NCBI GenBank assembly: GCA_048938005.1
Contig: JBHLMQ010000001.1
Coordinates: forward strand, 1-64,000
Reading direction: 5' to 3'
From: Promethearchaeota archaeon
GTDB taxonomy: Archaea > Asgardarchaeota > Lokiarchaeia > Sigyniarchaeales > SOKP01
Length of the DNA: 64,000 nucleotides
Shown piece by piece: positions 10,221-18,184 of the stretch (the stretch's first letter is position 1; every line of letters starts with the position of its first letter). Under the pieces are notes generated by a model. The model was not told the origin of the DNA. It did no database searches and was given only the letters and a program-made list of their open reading frames with translations. A program made the position numbers and the translations under genes.

Positions 10221-11378
10221 TTAATATTTTGAGGGCGTTTTTGATTTAATATGCGAAGGAGTTTTTGTTTTAATTGAGGGGGTTTTAGATTTAATTTTCC
10301 TTAGTTCTCTTTCAAATTCTCTTTTTTCATTTAAAAATCTTTGTCGATCCTTCTCTAGTTTTTCTCTTTCACGTTTAATAAGATTTTTTTCCCTTTCTAA
10401 ATTTGATTTTACTTTTTCTAATTGTCTATTTTCATCATTCAATTTTCTAAACCTTTCCTCTAAATTCGGAATCTTGCGATTTAAAGAGTAGAATTTATTC
10501 TCTGCTGCTGGAATTTTTCTTTCTAATTCTTTTAATCTTGCTTCTTGTTGATGCCTTTTTTTTTCCAAATTATTTACATCTCTTTCTGATTTATCTCTAT
10601 ATTTTTTCAAATCTAATCTTTTTTTATCAATTTCCCGAGTTTTAAGGTCTAAATCTTGTTTTTTATATCTGGTTTTTTCTCTTTCTTCCTTGAGTTTTTT
10701 CTTTTCATCAGATATTCGGTTTTTTTCATCAGTAATCTCCCTTCTCAAATTATTAACTTCTCTATTTAAGTTATCCCTTTCTCTAGTTAAATTTTTGATT
10801 TCATTTCTTAAATCCATTAATTTATTTTCTAAATCATTGGTTGTTCTCTCTAAAGCTTTTTCTCTCCTCTCCATCCCTGGAATTTTTGTTTTGATTTCTT
10901 TTATGCGCTTTTCTGTTCTTTCTTTTTCCCATTCTAAATTTTTCTTCTGATTTCGAATATCATCTCTCAATTCATCTAATTTATTTTGATATCTTTCTAA
11001 TTCAGCATTTTTTTGATCTAATTCTTCATTCTTACTTCTGATTTTTTCTCGAAATTGTCTGTTTTTAGTAGCTAAATCATTTTTTTGTTGTTCTATTTGG
11101 TTTTTCGTCGTTTCTAACTCATTCCGCAAGTTATTTCGTTGTTCAATAAGATTTTTAATTTTAAGTTCCTTTTCTTTTCTTTTTCTTTCTAAATCTTCTA
11201 TATTTTCTTCGTAATTTTCTATTTGATTAAGAACTTTTTCCCATTCGCTCTTTTCTTTATCCAGTTTAATTCTTTCTTTTTTTAATTTTTTAAGCAATTT
11301 TTTATCCGAAACTTGATCTAATTCTTCATCTGGCGTTTTTTCTCGAATTTGATATTTAGGAATAGGTTCGTCATTCAT
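10221..11378 (-). CDS. Long charged coiled-coil protein with C-terminal KTPS repeats
   Basis: About 340 aa of K/E/R/L heptads; tail IKSKTPS-IKTKTPS-HIKSKTPS-KY. Confidence 0.85.
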   Translation of the reverse strand: MNDEPIPKYQIREKTPDEELDQVSDKKLLKKLKKERIKLDKEKSEWEKVLNQIENYEENIEDLERKRKEKELKIKNLIEQRNNLRNELETTKNQIEQQKNDLATKNRQFREKIRSKNEELDQKNAELERYQNKLDELRDDIRNQKKNLEWEKERTEKRIKEIKTKIPGMERREKALERTTNDLENKLMDLRNEIKNLTRERDNLNREVNNLRREITDEKNRISDEKKKLKEEREKTRYKKQDLDLKTREIDKKRLDLKKYRDKSERDVNNLEKKRHQQEARLKELERKIPAAENKFYSLNRKIPNLEERFRKLNDENRQLEKVKSNLEREKNLIKREREKLEKDRQRFLNEKREFERELRKIKSKTPSIKTKTPSHIKSKTPSKY

Positions 11379-11587: not shown

Positions 11588-12037
11588 ATGGGCTTTGATG
11601 ATGAATTTGATGAGGAATTTGATGAGGAATTTGATGAAGAATTTGATGAACAAGAATTTGATGAAGATTTAGAGGATTTAGAAGAAGAATTTGAGGAAGA
11701 AATAGAAGAACACGTCGAAGAACCTTTTGTAGAAATTGCTAAAGAGGAAGTTGATTCCAAAACACCTTCTACTAAGACTATTCAAAGAGGGAAAAAGATA
11801 TCAGTATATTTTATGTCTACTATCGGTCCAGGTGAGAAAAAGCAAAAATTAACTGTTAATGATGGAAACAGCGTTGGTGACATTAAAGAAACTGTAGCAA
11901 ATTTATTTGGTTTAGATCCTGCTGACTTTTACTTATCATGTGGTGGCGTAACAATGGATGAAACTAACTCTTTAAGCTTTTATAATGTTTCTGACGGAGA
12001 TGACATACTTTTAATTCCAGCTAGTATTGCTGGTTAA
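11588..12037 (+). CDS. Ubiquitin-like protein 1 (acidic N-terminal tail, C-terminus -SIAG)
   Basis: Beta-grasp pattern ISVYFMST...VGDIKETVANLFGL...GGVTMDETNSLSFYNVSDGDDILLIP; terminal Gly; lies next to E1/E2/JAMM. Confidence 0.88.
   Translation: MGFDDEFDEEFDEEFDEEFDEQEFDEDLEDLEEEFEEEIEEHVEEPFVEIAKEEVDSKTPSTKTIQRGKKISVYFMSTIGPGEKKQKLTVNDGNSVGDIKETVANLFGLDPADFYLSCGGVTMDETNSLSFYNVSDGDDILLIPASIAG
11594..11665 (+). repeat. Coding 12-bp tandem repeat (TTTGATGARGAA, FDEE)
   Basis: About six consecutive FDDE/FDEE-type units at the start of Ubl1. Confidence 0.85.
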
Positions 12038-12056: not shown

Positions 12057-12845
12057 TTAATTTCTTTCTTTTCTTGAAGGGATTAGAGCAATTTCATCGT
12101 CATCATCAATATCATAATCTTTTATTATTGAGTTCTCTTGTAGTAATATCCCTCCGCTAGATAAGAGAAAATCTTCTAATTCATAATCAAATAATATTGC
12201 AATTTTTTCCTTAATTATTCTAATTACTTCAGTAGTATCAACAATTATTATTTTCGTTTTCTCGCCAGGTTCAACTAATGATCTTATATAAACTCGAATC
12301 TGACCTTCCATTTCGATTTGTCTTTTAGGTGGGGTATAAATTATAGCTCCATCAGTTTTATCCTTGGTGTTCAATATATTTTCGATTAAATCATTTCTCT
12401 CATTTGGATCGTAATATAGCATTTCTCTAATAAATAATATCTTATCCATTTTTGATAATCCTAGAAGGTTTATGTTATCTAATTCTTCCTTTCTAAAGAT
12501 TGAAAAAATAAATTTATCAACTATTGGCATATCCTTATAAGTCTCATCCGATTCAATATATTCTTCTATAGAAGGCATGACATCAATATAATCTTCAATA
12601 ATATCGCTAGTATCCTTTTGAATTAATTTTGGTTTTGTAAAGTATTTTTTTTCTTTTAATCTAATATCTTGACTACTTTTAGACTGTATAACGGTGTAAA
12701 TAGTACTTGTAGATAAAACTGCGACACTACTAATAGTTAGGACAAGAAATAAAGGAATATTTTCTACCTGAAATAGGAAAAAAAAGACATAGAATAGAAT
12801 ACAAAAAACGTAAATAACACTTAAAATTCTATAATTTTTTCTCAT
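12057..12845 (-). CDS. Membrane-anchored ubiquitin-like domain protein (2 TM + C-terminal Ubl, no terminal Gly)
   Basis: Two N-terminal hydrophobic helices; the C-terminal domain aligns with Ubl1/2 (PGEK, FLLSSGG, DYDIDDDDEIALIP) but ends SRKERN. Confidence 0.85.
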   Translation of the reverse strand: MRKNYRILSVIYVFCILFYVFFFLFQVENIPLFLVLTISSVAVLSTSTIYTVIQSKSSQDIRLKEKKYFTKPKLIQKDTSDIIEDYIDVMPSIEEYIESDETYKDMPIVDKFIFSIFRKEELDNINLLGLSKMDKILFIREMLYYDPNERNDLIENILNTKDKTDGAIIYTPPKRQIEMEGQIRVYIRSLVEPGEKTKIIIVDTTEVIRIIKEKIAILFDYELEDFLLSSGGILLQENSIIKDYDIDDDDEIALIPSRKERN

Positions 12846-12930: not shown

Positions 12931-13602
12931 TTATATAGCTTTCATTGATTTTTTAGCTTTAGAATATTTCTCTAAATCTAGTTTGAAAACAATTCTATTT
13001 TTTTCTTTTTCAATCTTTATTAATTTCAGATCTATTAAAATATCTAAATATTTTTTAATAGTGCTGTGATTTTTTTTTAGACCAGTTGCTATTTCTGTAA
13101 TTTTAAATGCTTTATTTTCTTTTTTTATAAAATTAATTATTTTTTGAACGATTTCCTTTTTTAAATAATAGTATAGTGGGTCTAATTTTGGATTGGAATC
13201 AAATTTGAAGAAAATTTTGTGATTGTTGATTTGTTTTGATCTAATGAATTGGAATTTTTCTAAACATGATAAATGCCATAAAGCTTGATTACTACCAATA
13301 TTAAGAGCCCTCATTATTTCATTAATATTTGAGGGATTCTTTTTGATATAATTAAAGATTTCATTCCTTTTTGGATGTTCAATAATATTATTTTTCATTA
13401 ATCTGGTTCCAGGGATAATAATACGTCTTTTAATTAAATTCTTTAAGATTAACTCTATTCTATTCTCGTTTATATTAGGATTGTATCTTACCCTGTTGCT
13501 TATATATGAGATAATTTCTCTAATTGAGAAGAATGTTTTTTTTGTTAAATACTCTTCTACTAATTCAAGAACAACGGATTCTACATTATTCAGAGAACTC
13601 AT
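12931..13602 (-). CDS. Winged-helix transcriptional regulator (tandem ArsR-like wHTH)
   Basis: RNEIFNYIKKNP..INEIMRALNIG....WHLSCLE and ITEIATGLKKNHSTIKKYLDIL HTH patterns. Confidence 0.82.
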   Translation of the reverse strand: MSSLNNVESVVLELVEEYLTKKTFFSIREIISYISNRVRYNPNINENRIELILKNLIKRRIIIPGTRLMKNNIIEHPKRNEIFNYIKKNPSNINEIMRALNIGSNQALWHLSCLEKFQFIRSKQINNHKIFFKFDSNPKLDPLYYYLKKEIVQKIINFIKKENKAFKITEIATGLKKNHSTIKKYLDILIDLKLIKIEKEKNRIVFKLDLEKYSKAKKSMKAI

Positions 13603-13880: not shown

Positions 13881-14216
13881 ATGGGTTTTGATAATGAATT
13901 TGATGAAGATTTAGGTGGAGAAGAACCGTTAAAATCTAAAACTCCTGCAACTAAAACTCCTTCAGCAGGAAAGAAATTAACTTTATATTTTATGTCAACA
14001 ATTGGTCCTGGTGAAAAGAAGGAAAAATTAACTGTGAATGACAGTAATCGCGTAAGAGATATTAAACAAACATTAGGAAATTTATATGGCCTTGATCCTA
14101 ATGACTTTCACTTATCTTCTGGCGGAGTTACAATGGATGAAGATAGTGCATTAAGAGACTATGATGTAAACGATGGTGACGATATTCTATTAATCCCTGC
14201 TAGTACAGCTGGGTAG
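13881..14216 (+). CDS. Ubiquitin-like protein 2 (C-terminus -STAG)
   Basis: Close paralog of Ubl1 (YFMSTIGPGEKK, GGVTMDE, DGDDILLIPAS.AG); immediately upstream of E1. Confidence 0.9.
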   Translation: MGFDNEFDEDLGGEEPLKSKTPATKTPSAGKKLTLYFMSTIGPGEKKEKLTVNDSNRVRDIKQTLGNLYGLDPNDFHLSSGGVTMDEDSALRDYDVNDGDDILLIPASTAG

Positions 14217-14248: not shown

Positions 14249-14286
14249 AAGGGCTTTAAGCCCTTCAATTTTTTTTATTTTTTTTT
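14249..14286 (+). terminator. Hairpin plus T-tract between Ubl2 and E1
   Basis: AAGGGCT-TTA-AGCCCTT perfect 7-bp stem at 14249-14265, followed by long T runs. Confidence 0.6.
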
Positions 14287-14308: not shown

Positions 14309-15556
14309 TTGAATAAGGATTCAGATTTTTTTGCTAAAGAATTATCAGCGGATGAGAGAGACCTGTATGACCGTCAATTTCGTCTAGAAGGTTGGTCTCA
14401 GAAATTAGTAAAGAACTCAAGAGTGCTGATAGTCGGTGTTGGAGGCTTGGGTTGTGAAATTGCTAAAAATCTAGCCATGCTTGGTGTGGGTCATTTAGAT
14501 CTTATTGATTTAGATATCATTGAACATTCTAATTTGAACCGTCAAGTTCTATTTGCAGGAGCAAAGATAGGAGAGTCAAAAGCAGTTGTTGCTGCTAGAA
14601 AATTAAAAGAAATTAATCCTAATGTTATTGTTAAGGGATACCACACCTCCTTAGAACGTTTAAATCCGGCACTATATCAAGCTGCTGATGTTGTAATTGG
14701 AGGACTTGATTCGATGAATGCACGTCTAAATTTAAATGCACAATGTATAAGATTTAAAAAGCCACTAGTAGATGGAGGAGTATCTGGTTATTATGGTCAT
14801 GTATACACAATATTTCCTTACAAAAATGCTTGTTATGAATGTAATCCATTACCGGTAGGAGAGAGTGATGAGATGGCTGCTTGTACTGTTGTTGGAGTCC
14901 CCCGAAAAAGGATTCACTGCGTTTTTAAAGGAGATATGGCATTCAGAGAAAAATTTGATAGAGATCCGAATCCAAAAGACGTAAATGATATTAAATTCAT
15001 TCAAAAGACTGCAAATGAATTAGTAAATAAACACAATTTCTTACCTGAATATACGGAGGATGATATTGTGAAAATCATTGATAGGCACGATCCTGGTATA
15101 ATAACTATAAATGCCGTCATTTCTGCCCTACAATCACATGAAACAACCAAAATCCTTCATTGGAAAAAAAGTCATAAAGGATTAGGTGAACCTATTAGAA
15201 GTTATGTGATCTTTAATGCAATTACAATGAAATTTTATCATATTGAAAAACAGAGAAACCCAGAATGTTCTCAATGTGGTAAAAAAGTACGACGAGTATC
15301 CATAAAATTGAAAGCTCAATCACCTTGTATAAATATAATTAAAATATTAAAGAAGAATGGATTTAAATTAGATCCAAATTCCGAGCCAATTCTAACTTTA
15401 CTGGATTTTAATGATATTATGATTGTTGATTTAGAGAAGAATCCAATTGAAAATGGGTTAAGAAATTACGAGCTTATGACAGCTGCTGGGTTTAAAGGTG
15501 GAGAAATTTTTGTAACCTTAAAAATAAAACAAGATTTAAATCAAAAAAGTTTTTAA
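14309..15556 (+). CDS. E1 ubiquitin-like activating enzyme (ThiF/UBA family with catalytic Cys domain)
   Basis: YDRQ, GVGGLGCE, SNLNRQ; Zn pairs CYEC and CSQC; UBA3-like AACTVVGVPRKRIHC segment. Confidence 0.93.
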   Translation: MNKDSDFFAKELSADERDLYDRQFRLEGWSQKLVKNSRVLIVGVGGLGCEIAKNLAMLGVGHLDLIDLDIIEHSNLNRQVLFAGAKIGESKAVVAARKLKEINPNVIVKGYHTSLERLNPALYQAADVVIGGLDSMNARLNLNAQCIRFKKPLVDGGVSGYYGHVYTIFPYKNACYECNPLPVGESDEMAACTVVGVPRKRIHCVFKGDMAFREKFDRDPNPKDVNDIKFIQKTANELVNKHNFLPEYTEDDIVKIIDRHDPGIITINAVISALQSHETTKILHWKKSHKGLGEPIRSYVIFNAITMKFYHIEKQRNPECSQCGKKVRRVSIKLKAQSPCINIIKILKKNGFKLDPNSEPILTLLDFNDIMIVDLEKNPIENGLRNYELMTAAGFKGGEIFVTLKIKQDLNQKSF

Positions 15557-15637: not shown

Positions 15638-16165
15638 ATGAGTATAAGAAGTGGTCGAGTATCCCGAGATTTTGCGGGATTAAAAAAAATGCTTAAAGAA
15701 GGTAGTATCATTCAATTAAAACCATTTAGTCCGAAAAGGAAGAGTATTGATCACTTAGCAATCTTATTTAAAGGACCTAAAGGTACCGCTTATGCAGGTG
15801 GTCTTTTTAGATTAGAAATGAGATTTCCTGCTCAATATCCTAAACAACCTCCTTTTGTAAGAATGCATACTCCAATTTGGCATCCAAATTTTTGGCCAAA
15901 ACCCTCTGAATATAAAGGACAAAGAAATATTTGTCTAGCATTAGTAGATCCCTCATTAATAGGTAAAAAAGGTGGATGGAGTCCTTCAAAAACTGCTGTT
16001 ACAGTAGTTCAAGCGATAATTGCTATGTTAAACACGCGTGGTAAATATGTAAATCCTACAGATGTATTTAATAAAAAAGCAGCAATAGAAATGATAAAGA
16101 ATCAAAAGTTTTTTGAGAAAAAAGTAAAAAATCTTGTTAAGAAGTATGCAAATAAAAAATGGTGA
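15638..16165 (+). CDS. E2 ubiquitin-conjugating enzyme
   Basis: GPKGTAYAGGLF, FPAQYPKQPP, WHPN, catalytic NICL and WSPS. Confidence 0.95.
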   Translation: MSIRSGRVSRDFAGLKKMLKEGSIIQLKPFSPKRKSIDHLAILFKGPKGTAYAGGLFRLEMRFPAQYPKQPPFVRMHTPIWHPNFWPKPSEYKGQRNICLALVDPSLIGKKGGWSPSKTAVTVVQAIIAMLNTRGKYVNPTDVFNKKAAIEMIKNQKFFEKKVKNLVKKYANKKW

Positions 16166-16986
16166 TTTTTTTAATGGATAATGATGACCTGGCCAATAAC
16201 TCGATAAAAGATGTAATTAAGAGGAAGATAAAGGAAAAAATAAAACAAGAACTATTAGATGAAATCTGTGAAGAACTTAAATTAGAAGAAGATGAATTAA
16301 CTGAAGAAATTTCTTCAATGCTTACAAGAAAACCATCTGAAAAACCAATTATAAAACTTACTAAGATTCCTACAGCTAGAATTGTAGAAAATAAAAAAGT
16401 TGAAACTGAAAAAGAAGAGGAAATCCAAAAAGAGATTTATATTTCAGTAAAAGCTATACTTAAAATAGCGACTCATGCGCTTAAATACGCGAATTCTAAG
16501 ATTCCTAAAGAAAAATGGGTGGAAGTGATAGGGCTTCTAGCAGGAAAGATAGATAATAATCATGTAATCCATATAGAAGATTCTTATCCAATGGGACATG
16601 GTACAGCAGTTTATGCAGAAATTAAAGATTATAAAAATTACGTTAGAGCTTTTAAAGATATTAAAAGGCAGAAGTATTTTATATGTGGATGGTATCATTC
16701 ACATCCATCTTATGGATGTTTCATGTCGAATGAAGACATGGGGACTCAAGCGAGATACCAAAAATTATGGGATAAAGCTGTTGCTCTTGTCATCGATCCC
16801 TATCAAATTAATGGTAAATCTGCGGGATTTGAAATATATAAAGCTGATATTAAATCTAACACATGGTATCCCCTTATATATGGAATTAAAGGATCATTAG
16901 ATGTAAAAATGTTACCAGAAGTATTAAAATTTATAAATCCCATAACTGAGGGAAAAGCAGTATATCTCGAATATGACGAGGATTAA
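16159..16986 (+). CDS. JAB1/MPN (JAMM) metalloisopeptidase, Rpn11/CSN5-like (true start may be the ATG at 16174)
   Basis: EVIGLL...GWYHSHPSYGCFMSNEDMGTQARYQ...ALVIDP; charged N-terminal extension. Confidence 0.93.
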   Translation: MVIFLMDNDDLANNSIKDVIKRKIKEKIKQELLDEICEELKLEEDELTEEISSMLTRKPSEKPIIKLTKIPTARIVENKKVETEKEEEIQKEIYISVKAILKIATHALKYANSKIPKEKWVEVIGLLAGKIDNNHVIHIEDSYPMGHGTAVYAEIKDYKNYVRAFKDIKRQKYFICGWYHSHPSYGCFMSNEDMGTQARYQKLWDKAVALVIDPYQINGKSAGFEIYKADIKSNTWYPLIYGIKGSLDVKMLPEVLKFINPITEGKAVYLEYDED

Positions 16987-17011: not shown

Positions 17012-18184
17012 GTGACCAAATATAAATCTATTGTAATTGTATTAGCGATATTTTCGCTTATAGGAATAGTGCACGGTGCGATCTTAATCTCTTTTAATAT
17101 ATTTGTGAGTTGGTTATTGATTGGAATTTGGTTAATATTTTCGTTTAAAGTATTAAAAAATATTAAGCAACATCGAGAATATCGAAGTCCTCACAATACT
17201 GCATTCTTTACTATTGGCCCCGTCTTTATTGGAATATTTTATTCAATTTGGGGAAATTTTACAGCCTTATTAGGAGAAAATCTTATTGTAGATTCAAATT
17301 TATATTTAAGTCTATGGAGTATTCTATTTGGATTACCTTATGTAATTTACGGCTCATTTTCCTTATATCGATGTTTTAAGAAATATAATGTAATTTATTT
17401 TGGTACAAAATCAGTAAATGCACGTAAATTTGCCTATTTCTTAGGTTTTTCAATTCTATTTTTTATAATTTTCTATTGGATAAGTTTTTATTCATTTGCA
17501 GAATTTTATGGATTTCTGCTAATAATTGATCTTAATCTTTTGATATTACTTATTGGAACTATTATAATATTGATTATTCCAGGATTATTAGGATCTCGTT
17601 CGCAATTACCGCAATTGACTAGAGATTATATAGCAAGACGTACAAGTAGATTAAACAGTTTAGTTTCACCAAACACCCATAGAGAAAGCATTCATACTAC
17701 AGCAAGATCATCTCCAACACCTTCTACAAGATTTGTTACTCATACTTCGAGATCTGTTTCCCATTCTTCAAGATCAACGCCGACAGGACATATACAATCT
17801 AGAACTTCTAGAGTTAAAACCACTACTCGTTCTAGAAGCACAAGTAAAAAAGGAAAGCCAATAAGAAGAAGTAATACTACTGTAAAACATGCGAATTACA
17901 AACATTATAGACCAAAAGCCGCAAACTTGTCAATAGAAGATTTTAAATGTATTTTTTGTTTTAAATTACCAGAATTTCCTAAAGATAATGGTAGAGGAAT
18001 AATTTTATGTCCAAATTGTAGGTACCCTGCTCATGCTGATGAATTTAAAGATTGGCTTAGAACTTCTGGTCTTTGTTCTAGATGTAATGCCCCTATTCCG
18101 TTAAGTTATAGGAGAAATCCTAAAATCATTAGTGTAAAAAGCTATTCAATAATTTATAAAGATTTTCTAAGGAAAAAACAGTAG
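17012..18184 (+). CDS. Multi-pass membrane protein with C-terminal RING-like zinc finger (putative E3 ligase)
   Basis: About six hydrophobic helices, an S/T/R-rich linker, then CIFC...CPNCRYPAHADE..W....CSRC; last gene of the E1-E2-JAMM run. Confidence 0.8.
   Translation: MTKYKSIVIVLAIFSLIGIVHGAILISFNIFVSWLLIGIWLIFSFKVLKNIKQHREYRSPHNTAFFTIGPVFIGIFYSIWGNFTALLGENLIVDSNLYLSLWSILFGLPYVIYGSFSLYRCFKKYNVIYFGTKSVNARKFAYFLGFSILFFIIFYWISFYSFAEFYGFLLIIDLNLLILLIGTIIILIIPGLLGSRSQLPQLTRDYIARRTSRLNSLVSPNTHRESIHTTARSSPTPSTRFVTHTSRSVSHSSRSTPTGHIQSRTSRVKTTTRSRSTSKKGKPIRRSNTTVKHANYKHYRPKAANLSIEDFKCIFCFKLPEFPKDNGRGIILCPNCRYPAHADEFKDWLRTSGLCSRCNAPIPLSYRRNPKIISVKSYSIIYKDFLRKKQ

Follow-up and report, generated by a model that had tools for sequence, protein, structure and literature searches.

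A conserved Ala-Gly-ended ubiquitin subfamily of Asgard archaea and its predicted conjugation enzymes

What kind of modifier ends in one glycine preceded by alanine, and is it built on the plan of ubiquitin or on that of UFM1? The question is raised by two genes in a 64,000-nucleotide stretch of DNA from a Loki-type Asgard archaeon of the Promethearchaeota (contig JBHLMQ010000001.1, positions 1 to 64,000 of the forward strand; hereafter the window), which has a G+C content of about 30% and belongs to an assembly of 3.72 Mb in 101 contigs. Both genes encode soluble ubiquitin-like proteins (Ubls). Ubl1 (13881..14216, + strand), taken from the list of open reading frames (ORFs) and a PF00240 match, is a ubiquitin-family modifier of 111 residues that is mature as encoded; its translation closes with ...RDYDVNDGDDILLIPASTAG (...LLIPASTAG), and the stop codon TAG stands at 14214-14216. 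Ubl2 (11588..12037, + strand; ORF list and Pfam) is a paralogue of 149 residues that is 69% identical to Ubl1 and has an enlarged acidic (EFDE)n arm, and its translation closes with ...DGDDILLIPASIAG (...LLIPASIAG), the stop again directly following Gly. That is to say, both soluble Ubls have one single terminal Gly preceded by Ala: where the ubiquitin family has Gly-Gly (GG) at its C terminus there is Ala-Gly (AG), with the terminal Gly kept. A previous sequence-only reading of the window had held that both proteins stop directly after DILLIPAS(T/I)AG and need no maturation, which is borne out, as are its coordinates and the strings GVTMDEDSAL and LRDYDVNDGD that it picked out. Ubl1 and Ubl2 belong to a ubiquitin subfamily of Asgard archaea that is distinct and has an activating enzyme (E1), a conjugating enzyme (E2), an Rpn11-like JAMM peptidase and a candidate membrane ligase (E3) of its own. 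The same reading had spoken of a separate Ubl class; this stands insofar as the modifier is separate from the GG modifiers of the genome and is served by an E1, an E2 and a JAMM of its own, and fails insofar as the class was thought to be UFM1-like.

First of all, profile and fold both place Ubl1 in the ubiquitin family. Its PF00240 score of 28.3 bits exceeds the cut-off of 25.4, residues 46-104 lying on profile positions 9-67 of 72, and PF00240 is matched by all 30 members of a diverse alignment, 25 of which also match the SUMO-like Rad60-SLD. The PDB sequence matches listed for Ubl1 are ubiquitins and ubiquitin variants, Hub1 (0.0077) and NEDD8 (0.46). The AlphaFold2 model, calculated from the 30-sequence alignment, contains a beta-grasp domain at residues 32-106 (13974..14198, + strand), also seen with Foldseek, with strands at 32-39, 46-53, 76-80 and 101-106 and helices at 58-69 and 91-94; the N-terminal arm is modelled with low confidence. 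The best Foldseek matches are the Caldiarchaeum ubiquitin structures 6fno_D and 6fj7 (E from 1.6e-7 to about 2e-7, target TM 0.80-0.84), followed by ubiquitin variants, SUMO, NEDD8 and ISG15. An E1 with a catalytic Cys and an E2 of UBC fold accompany the Ubl as well, as far as sequence can tell.

The tail itself was compared with a ubiquitin monomer cut from a stored polyubiquitin. In the MAFFT alignment, DDILLIPASTAG falls on STLHLVLRLRGG without a gap, so that P106-A-S-T-A110-G111 (14196..14213, + strand) lies on L71-R-L-R-G75-G76 of ubiquitin; Ile105 corresponds to Val70, P106 to L71, A107 to R72, A110 to G75 and G111 to G76. Read in this register, IP-x4-G is spaced just as the tail of ubiquitin itself (V70-L71-R72-L73-R74-G75-G76), with Ala at 75. 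The first loop of Ubl1 has a three-residue insertion (GPGEKK) relative to ubiquitin in the same alignment.

The AG-ended subfamily is real and conserved. A word-indexed search with Ubl1 returned 882 homologues at E≤0.001 among 886 candidates, and the best 120 are 81-100% identical to it. AG forms the last two residues in 116 of these best 120 of 882 (114 STAG, one SSAG, one SIAG), and in the remaining four it is followed by KA (two), KL (one) or QTST (one). An exhaustive search of 50%-identity cluster representatives gave 230 matches at E≤0.001, of which 150 were listed; 59 of the latter, with at least 35% identity, were kept, and the 91 dropped were mostly eukaryotic polyubiquitin-like sequences and a few distant relatives. 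Forty-three of the 59 align through query residue 111, and AG is found there in every one; the other 16 are fragments or tail-less forms. Within the 43, 18 stop at AG, 23 have 1-6 more residues, and two (P0207 and P0256) run on for 671 and 554 residues past it. T64, L71, G82, L103, I105, P106, A110 and G111 are invariant in the alignment of 30 diverse members. Because AG is kept so consistently among both the closest homologues and the representatives, it is not a product of chance, and the variable or GG ends in homologues that the sequence-only reading had named as the evidence that would speak against it were not encountered among them.

Members of the Ubl family occur across several Asgard lineages. 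Of 400 genomes sampled from the same phylum, 194 contain a match at E≤1e-5; among these are 119 of the 134 genomes of the window's own family and genomes from ten further families. Matches are lacking altogether in many families, such as f18 (0/12) and f19 (0/19). When one genome per family was checked for the ten other Asgard families, all 14 distinct Ubl genes proved to end in ...S(T/R)AG, four of them with one or two extra residues, and an E1 orthologue (43-71% identity) followed the Ubl in all ten. Within the genus, E1 adjoins the Ubl at 22 of 29 loci, the other seven being spare copies elsewhere. The records of a few family members bear the source labels Promethearchaeia, Hodarchaeales, Heimdallarchaeota and Sigynarchaeota; since the labels of metagenome-assembled genomes are unreliable, only several Asgard lineages are claimed.

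In the window, Ubl1 heads a row of genes for E1, E2, Rpn11-like JAMM and a membrane zinc-finger protein, an arrangement that is conserved; the combination of ubiquitin, E1, E2 and Rpn11-like JAMM that marks an archaeal-type ubiquitin operon is thus present. The E1 (14309..15556, + strand, 415 residues) has a ThiF adenylation domain (8.6e-60) with GVGGLG at 43, as found by Pfam and motif inspection, zinc cysteines at 175/178/320/323 and a catalytic-type Cys192 within AACTVVGVPRKRIHC. Its best solved relatives are SAE2/UBA2 (4.6e-40), Uba1 (1e-37) and UBA3 (6e-35, over residues 31-332), with MoeB at 5.7e-32 and UBA5 at only 1.7e-16. Across 13 E1 orthologues there is no variation in the ATP-binding glycines, in Cys175/178/320/323 or in Cys192 within AACTVVG.PRK..HC. 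In-frame stops that appeared in two E1 orthologues are an artefact of tblastn matches overrunning the true stop. The E2 (15638..16165, + strand, 175 residues) has a canonical UBC fold (UQ_con, 2e-24) with HPN at 82-84 and Cys99, and its relatives are ordinary UBC enzymes. The JAMM peptidase (16159..16986, + strand, 275 residues; JAB, 7.1e-18), whose gene overlaps that of E2 by 7 nucleotides, carries E122, H180-S-H182 and D193 and is related to Rpn11 (5.5e-18), CsRpn11 (6.5e-15) and CSN5. The last gene of the row (17012..18184, + strand) encodes a membrane protein of 390 residues with hydrophobic segments and a C-terminal CxxC...CxxC-x4-H...CxxC zinc domain, and 22 orthologues show its Cys/His pattern unchanged. 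Judged on these signatures, the cascade is of the ubiquitin/NEDD8/SUMO type and not of the UFM1 type. Between Ubl1 and the E1 gene lies a G+C-rich, terminator-like hairpin AAGGGCTTTAAGCCCTT followed by a T-run (14249..14275, + strand; one site against 0.2 expected from shuffles). If the hairpin acts as a terminator, as its form suggests, it may yield more transcript of the tag than of the enzymes.

We therefore regard it as likely, with good confidence, that Ubl1 and Ubl2 are conjugatable AG-ended modifiers of the ubiquitin family. In the proposed mechanism, E1 would adenylate Gly111 of Ubl1, which would then be thioester-linked to Cys192 of E1, handed over to the UBC-type E2 at its Cys99, and ligated to lysines, possibly at the membrane with the RING-like zinc-finger protein as E3; the JAMM would take it off again. 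In relatives, the JAMM would also trim short tails after AG and split tandem poly-Ubl precursors. It has been reported that Ala-Gly is the remnant left on lysines by conjugates of bacterial BilA (PMC10557695), and that CsRpn11 of Caldiarchaeum, which is adapted to GG, cuts an AG-like Gly77Ala mutant of the ubiquitin CsUb, altered at the penultimate residue, much more slowly than the wild type, and leaves Gly77Val uncut (PMC6043591). The remnant and the cutting of Gly77Ala together make AG credible as a conjugation end.

Precursors in relatives bear on the role of the JAMM. P0121 (372 residues) consists of three Ubl units and P0122 (250 residues) of two; each unit leads from an acidic arm through a KSKTP linker into a beta-grasp that ends in ...IP(H/F)S(T/Q)AG, the next unit abuts directly, and the arrays are capped by two residues, VL or IY. 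The tandem genes P0121, P0122 and P0139 resemble polyubiquitin genes and are located on single contigs that are only about 1.2 kb long. Among 142 distinct genes located by the tail motif, 122 stop right after AG (TAA 92, TAG 21, TGA 9) and 20 add 1-7 residues. The recurrent tail RLI corresponds to the window's own downstream bases read after the loss of one stop-codon base; this origin and the mixed ends of the 142 genes make the short tails look like unstable by-products. Arrays and tails alike would need a cut exactly after AG, and the JAMM of the operon is the only peptidase at hand, so that it probably also processes precursors in relatives. CsRpn11 has been described as both processing and deconjugating in Caldiarchaeum (PMC6043591). 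The earlier view of the JAMM as a deconjugase only thus fits the copies in this genome but not the wider family, in which 25 of the 43 representatives have residues after AG and tandem genes exist.

Four Ubl1 matches are present in the assembly: the two soluble copies, a membrane-anchored one and a zinc-ribbon fusion. The membrane-anchored protein (12057..12845, - strand) has a C-terminal ubiquitin-like domain (PF00240, 26.0 bits), ends in ...ALIPSRKERN and is syntenic in relatives; having no terminal Gly, it cannot be conjugated. The fusion, of 274 residues, lies on contig C60 (L003 1498-2322, - strand). Its N-terminal part is a zinc-ribbon-like CPKC region; it also has a coiled segment and a pair of KTP motifs, and its C-terminal Ubl closes with ...IIPSSTAG. 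Many other N-terminal fusions to the Ubl exist, including P0150 with a VWA domain and P0141 with 564 residues.

The same genome also contains GG modifiers; in total, five ThiF-type and four UBC-type matches were found in the assembly. On contig C9 (L007 2077-5714), a beta-grasp protein of 87 residues ending in ...RVIGG-NL stands beside its own E2, an E1 of 294 residues, a JAMM of 164 residues and a membrane C4HC3-type zinc-finger protein, and a paralogue of this Ubl on contig C70 (L008 2109-2411) ends in ...RVIGG-ITNNKI. With 36.7 bits, the strongest match to PF00240 anywhere in the genome is a third protein, on contig C56 (L005 7049-7306, + strand), which ends in ...TQAGG-V; its frame has no ATG, GTG or TTG near the start and may begin at ATT. 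A further E1-E2 pair is found on contig C76. By these gene sets, AG and GG tags coexist in one genome, each with its own enzymes.

What, then, does the alanine do? Ala110 is strictly invariant, the Gly77 mutants of CsUb are handled differently by CsRpn11, and the Caldiarchaeum study argues that tag systems present side by side have to be kept from cross-reacting (PMC6043591). On these grounds it is proposed, with somewhat less than even confidence, that Ala110 has co-adapted with its own cascade (E1 and JAMM) and contributes to the insulation of that cascade from the GG systems. A simpler account, which we hold to be possible but on the unlikely side, is that AG is a frozen neutral variant, the cascade working as it would with GG and Ala having no role in specificity. 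Two observations agree with it: in bacterial Bil an ordinary E1-E2 pair conjugates an AG-ended Ubl (PMC10557695), and CsRpn11 still cuts Gly77Ala, if only slowly (PMC6043591). However, neither Gly nor Ser ever replaces Ala110, whether in the 43 representatives, the 30 aligned members or the 14 genes of other families, which argues for purifying selection on Ala itself, and the genome has kept GG systems in parallel, equipped with enzymes of their own.

Several points weigh against the reading of Ubl1 and Ubl2 as insulated, ligase-assisted ubiquitin-family tags. AG is missing from P0231 (33% identity, one of the dropped rows), which ends in ...PVSIAA, from the distant relatives P0174, P0204 and P0212, and from the membrane-anchored Ubl type, which ends in ...IPSRK... 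The mean pLDDT of the Ubl1 model is only 73.5. At the place of ubiquitin Ile44 stands a nearly invariant Ser79 (14115-14117 of the window, + strand), so the Ile44 patch is absent, and the usual readers of that patch, of the eukaryotic type, may not recognise Ubl1. As for the ligase, the membrane protein of 17012..18184 is a candidate RING-like E3 by virtue of its Cys/His pattern: no Pfam family covers its zinc domain above threshold, and its RING-type matches are sub-threshold (zf-RING_16, E=0.13; Prok-RING_1, E=0.37). Finally, the insulating role of Ala110 is deduced from the coexistence of the systems and from a single set of mutants studied in another archaeon.

The N-terminal arm of Ubl1 (residues 1-31; 13881..13973, + strand) starts with MGFDNEFDEDL, continues with LKSKTPATKTPS and is predicted to be disordered (pLDDT 46-51 over residues 1-30). 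It is conserved as strongly as the fold: an acidic-aromatic start, mostly MSFDEFDEDL, occurs in 118 of the best 120 Ubl1 homologues, and K[TV]P occurs at least once in all 120 and at least twice in 106. The arm of Ubl2 (11588-11790 of the window, + strand), in which (EFDE)n is followed by further Glu-rich sequence, is about 38 residues longer than that of Ubl1, and the opposite-strand ORFs over the same positions are shadows of the (EFDE)n repeat. The motif of the arm returns in a neighbour. A syntenic coiled-coil protein encoded at 10221..11378 (- strand), divergently from the Ubl genes, ends in ...KIKSKTPSIKTKTPSHIKSKTPSKY, its final 22 residues containing the (I)K(S/T)KTPS repeat three times; the same motif lies in the Ubl1 arm (13932-13961, + strand). 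In a crude ORF set of the genome, only four of 3458 ORFs have at least two [SKTR]KTP motifs, namely Ubl1, the C60 fusion, this coiled-coil neighbour and one unrelated protein. Twenty-two of 23 distinct complete coiled-coil orthologues, which start with IPKYQIREKTP, end with a KTP-type motif, and a gene with a KTP-type tail divergently adjoins the Ubl in six of ten loci of distant families. SKTP as such is not enriched across the genome, where it occurs 15 times for an expectation of 9.9; its clustering alone sets it apart.

The KTP-type motif could, from its placement, be an acceptor or docking site. A more far-reaching idea, which is speculative and rather improbable, is that the AG tags are an Asgard-wide second modifier, SUMO-like and motif-directed, for which the lysines of (I/L)K(S/T)KTP in the arm would serve as acceptor or docking sites for E2/E3. 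If this were true, chains would form on the Ubl arm, the coiled-coil neighbour would be a dedicated first substrate, and the tandem poly-Ubl genes would imply that the polyubiquitin-style precursor strategy is older than eukaryotes.

It might also be that the AG-ended Ubls are not conjugated at all and act as a non-covalent ubiquitin-like adaptor or as a sulfur carrier of the ThiS/MoaD type. The non-conjugatable related domain of the neighbouring membrane protein and a weak ThiS match in one of the 30 aligned members lean this way, yet the operon has an E2 with a catalytic Cys, a Rpn11-like JAMM and an E1 with a catalytic-type Cys loop, the C-terminal Gly is strictly kept, and the pro-forms and arrays need cleavage exactly after AG, so we give the idea very little weight. 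Hardly any credence is left for a UFM1-like separate modifier class recognised through the IP-x4-G tail, as the sequence-only reading had it from a UFM1 tail, a single Gly after a non-Gly residue: the single terminal Gly after a non-Gly residue and the Ile-Pro five residues before it do fit, but Ufm1 (PF03671) is not among the 21 Pfam families matched by the 30 aligned members at E≤10, the Ufm1 model at E≤1 across the whole genome meets no Ubl gene and one unrelated place (on contig C76), the tail aligns with ubiquitin without a gap, E1 is far nearer to SAE2/UBA2, Uba1 and UBA3 than to UBA5, and the E2 is UQ_con, with no match to the UFC1 model. Nor is there a UFM1 chain among the 60 PDB sequence matches or the 50 Foldseek rows listed, and the Foldseek comparison that had been recommended came out in favour of Caldiarchaeum ubiquitin. 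A relationship to UFM1 is thereby rejected.

To complete the surroundings of the operon, four genes lie upstream of Ubl1: the winged-helix gene, the membrane-anchored Ubl gene, Ubl2 and the coiled-coil gene. The first of these (12931..13602, - strand; Pfam) encodes a winged-helix (ArsR-type) DNA-binding protein and is syntenic with the cluster.

The ubiquitin systems of Asgard archaea are regarded as precursors of the eukaryotic one. One widespread Asgard tag lineage has fixed AG, without an Ile44 patch and with a conserved N-terminal arm. Should Ubl1 and Ubl2 be conjugated as proposed, this lineage, by running beside GG tags in the same cell, would point to several insulated ubiquitin-like pathways before eukaryotes. 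There would also be practical consequences. Proteomics directed at the di-Gly remnant would miss the AG tag; the last Lys/Arg before the end of Ubl1 is R91, so that trypsin leaves a remnant of 20 residues, DYDVNDGDDILLIPASTAG. Moreover, ubiquitin readers of the eukaryotic type may not bind the tag.

Compared with known systems, the AG tag resembles SUMO in its Rad60-SLD matches (25/30), in SAE2/UBA2 as the best match of its E1 and in a flexible, lysine-bearing N-terminal arm. It differs in that the arm sequences are unrelated and no SUMO-specific protease type is present; SUMO ends in GG. Ubiquitin operons of Asgard archaea and of Caldiarchaeum are already known (PMC5654768, PMC6043591, PMC9192718, bioRxiv 10.1101/2023.07.25.550441), and the tags characterised in these reports carry GG with a propeptide (PMC6043591, bioRxiv 10.1101/2023.07.25.550441). 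A full-text literature search, which covered main articles, brought up nothing on the Asgard subfamily's AG end, its arm or its tandem arrays; the word 'glycine' is absent from PMC9192718.

In gene content, the Ubl1 operon matches that of Caldiarchaeum subterraneum (CsUb, E1, E2, small RING and CsRpn11; PMC5654768, PMC6043591): a ubiquitin-fold tag, a compact E1 with a catalytic Cys, a UBC E2 and a Rpn11-like JAMM are common to both. However, CsUb is reported to be a precursor of 87 residues that is cut after GG (PMC6043591), whereas Ubl1 is ready-made, ends in AG and has the conserved N-terminal arm of 31 residues as a feature of its own; in place of a small RING there is a membrane protein as candidate E3, with a zinc domain below RING thresholds. 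The E1/E2/RING operon of a Helarchaeial Asgard archaeon is likewise Asgard and is reported to conjugate in vitro; its ubiquitin carries GG and a Ser-Pro-Lys-Asn propeptide (bioRxiv 10.1101/2023.07.25.550441), in contrast to the AG end of Ubl1, which has no propeptide. With respect to the end itself, there is a likeness to BilABCD, a bacterial anti-phage system that shares AG with the Ubl1 operon; there an AG-ended Ubl is a proven E1-E2 substrate, and a JAB peptidase both pre-processes and deconjugates it (PMC10557695).

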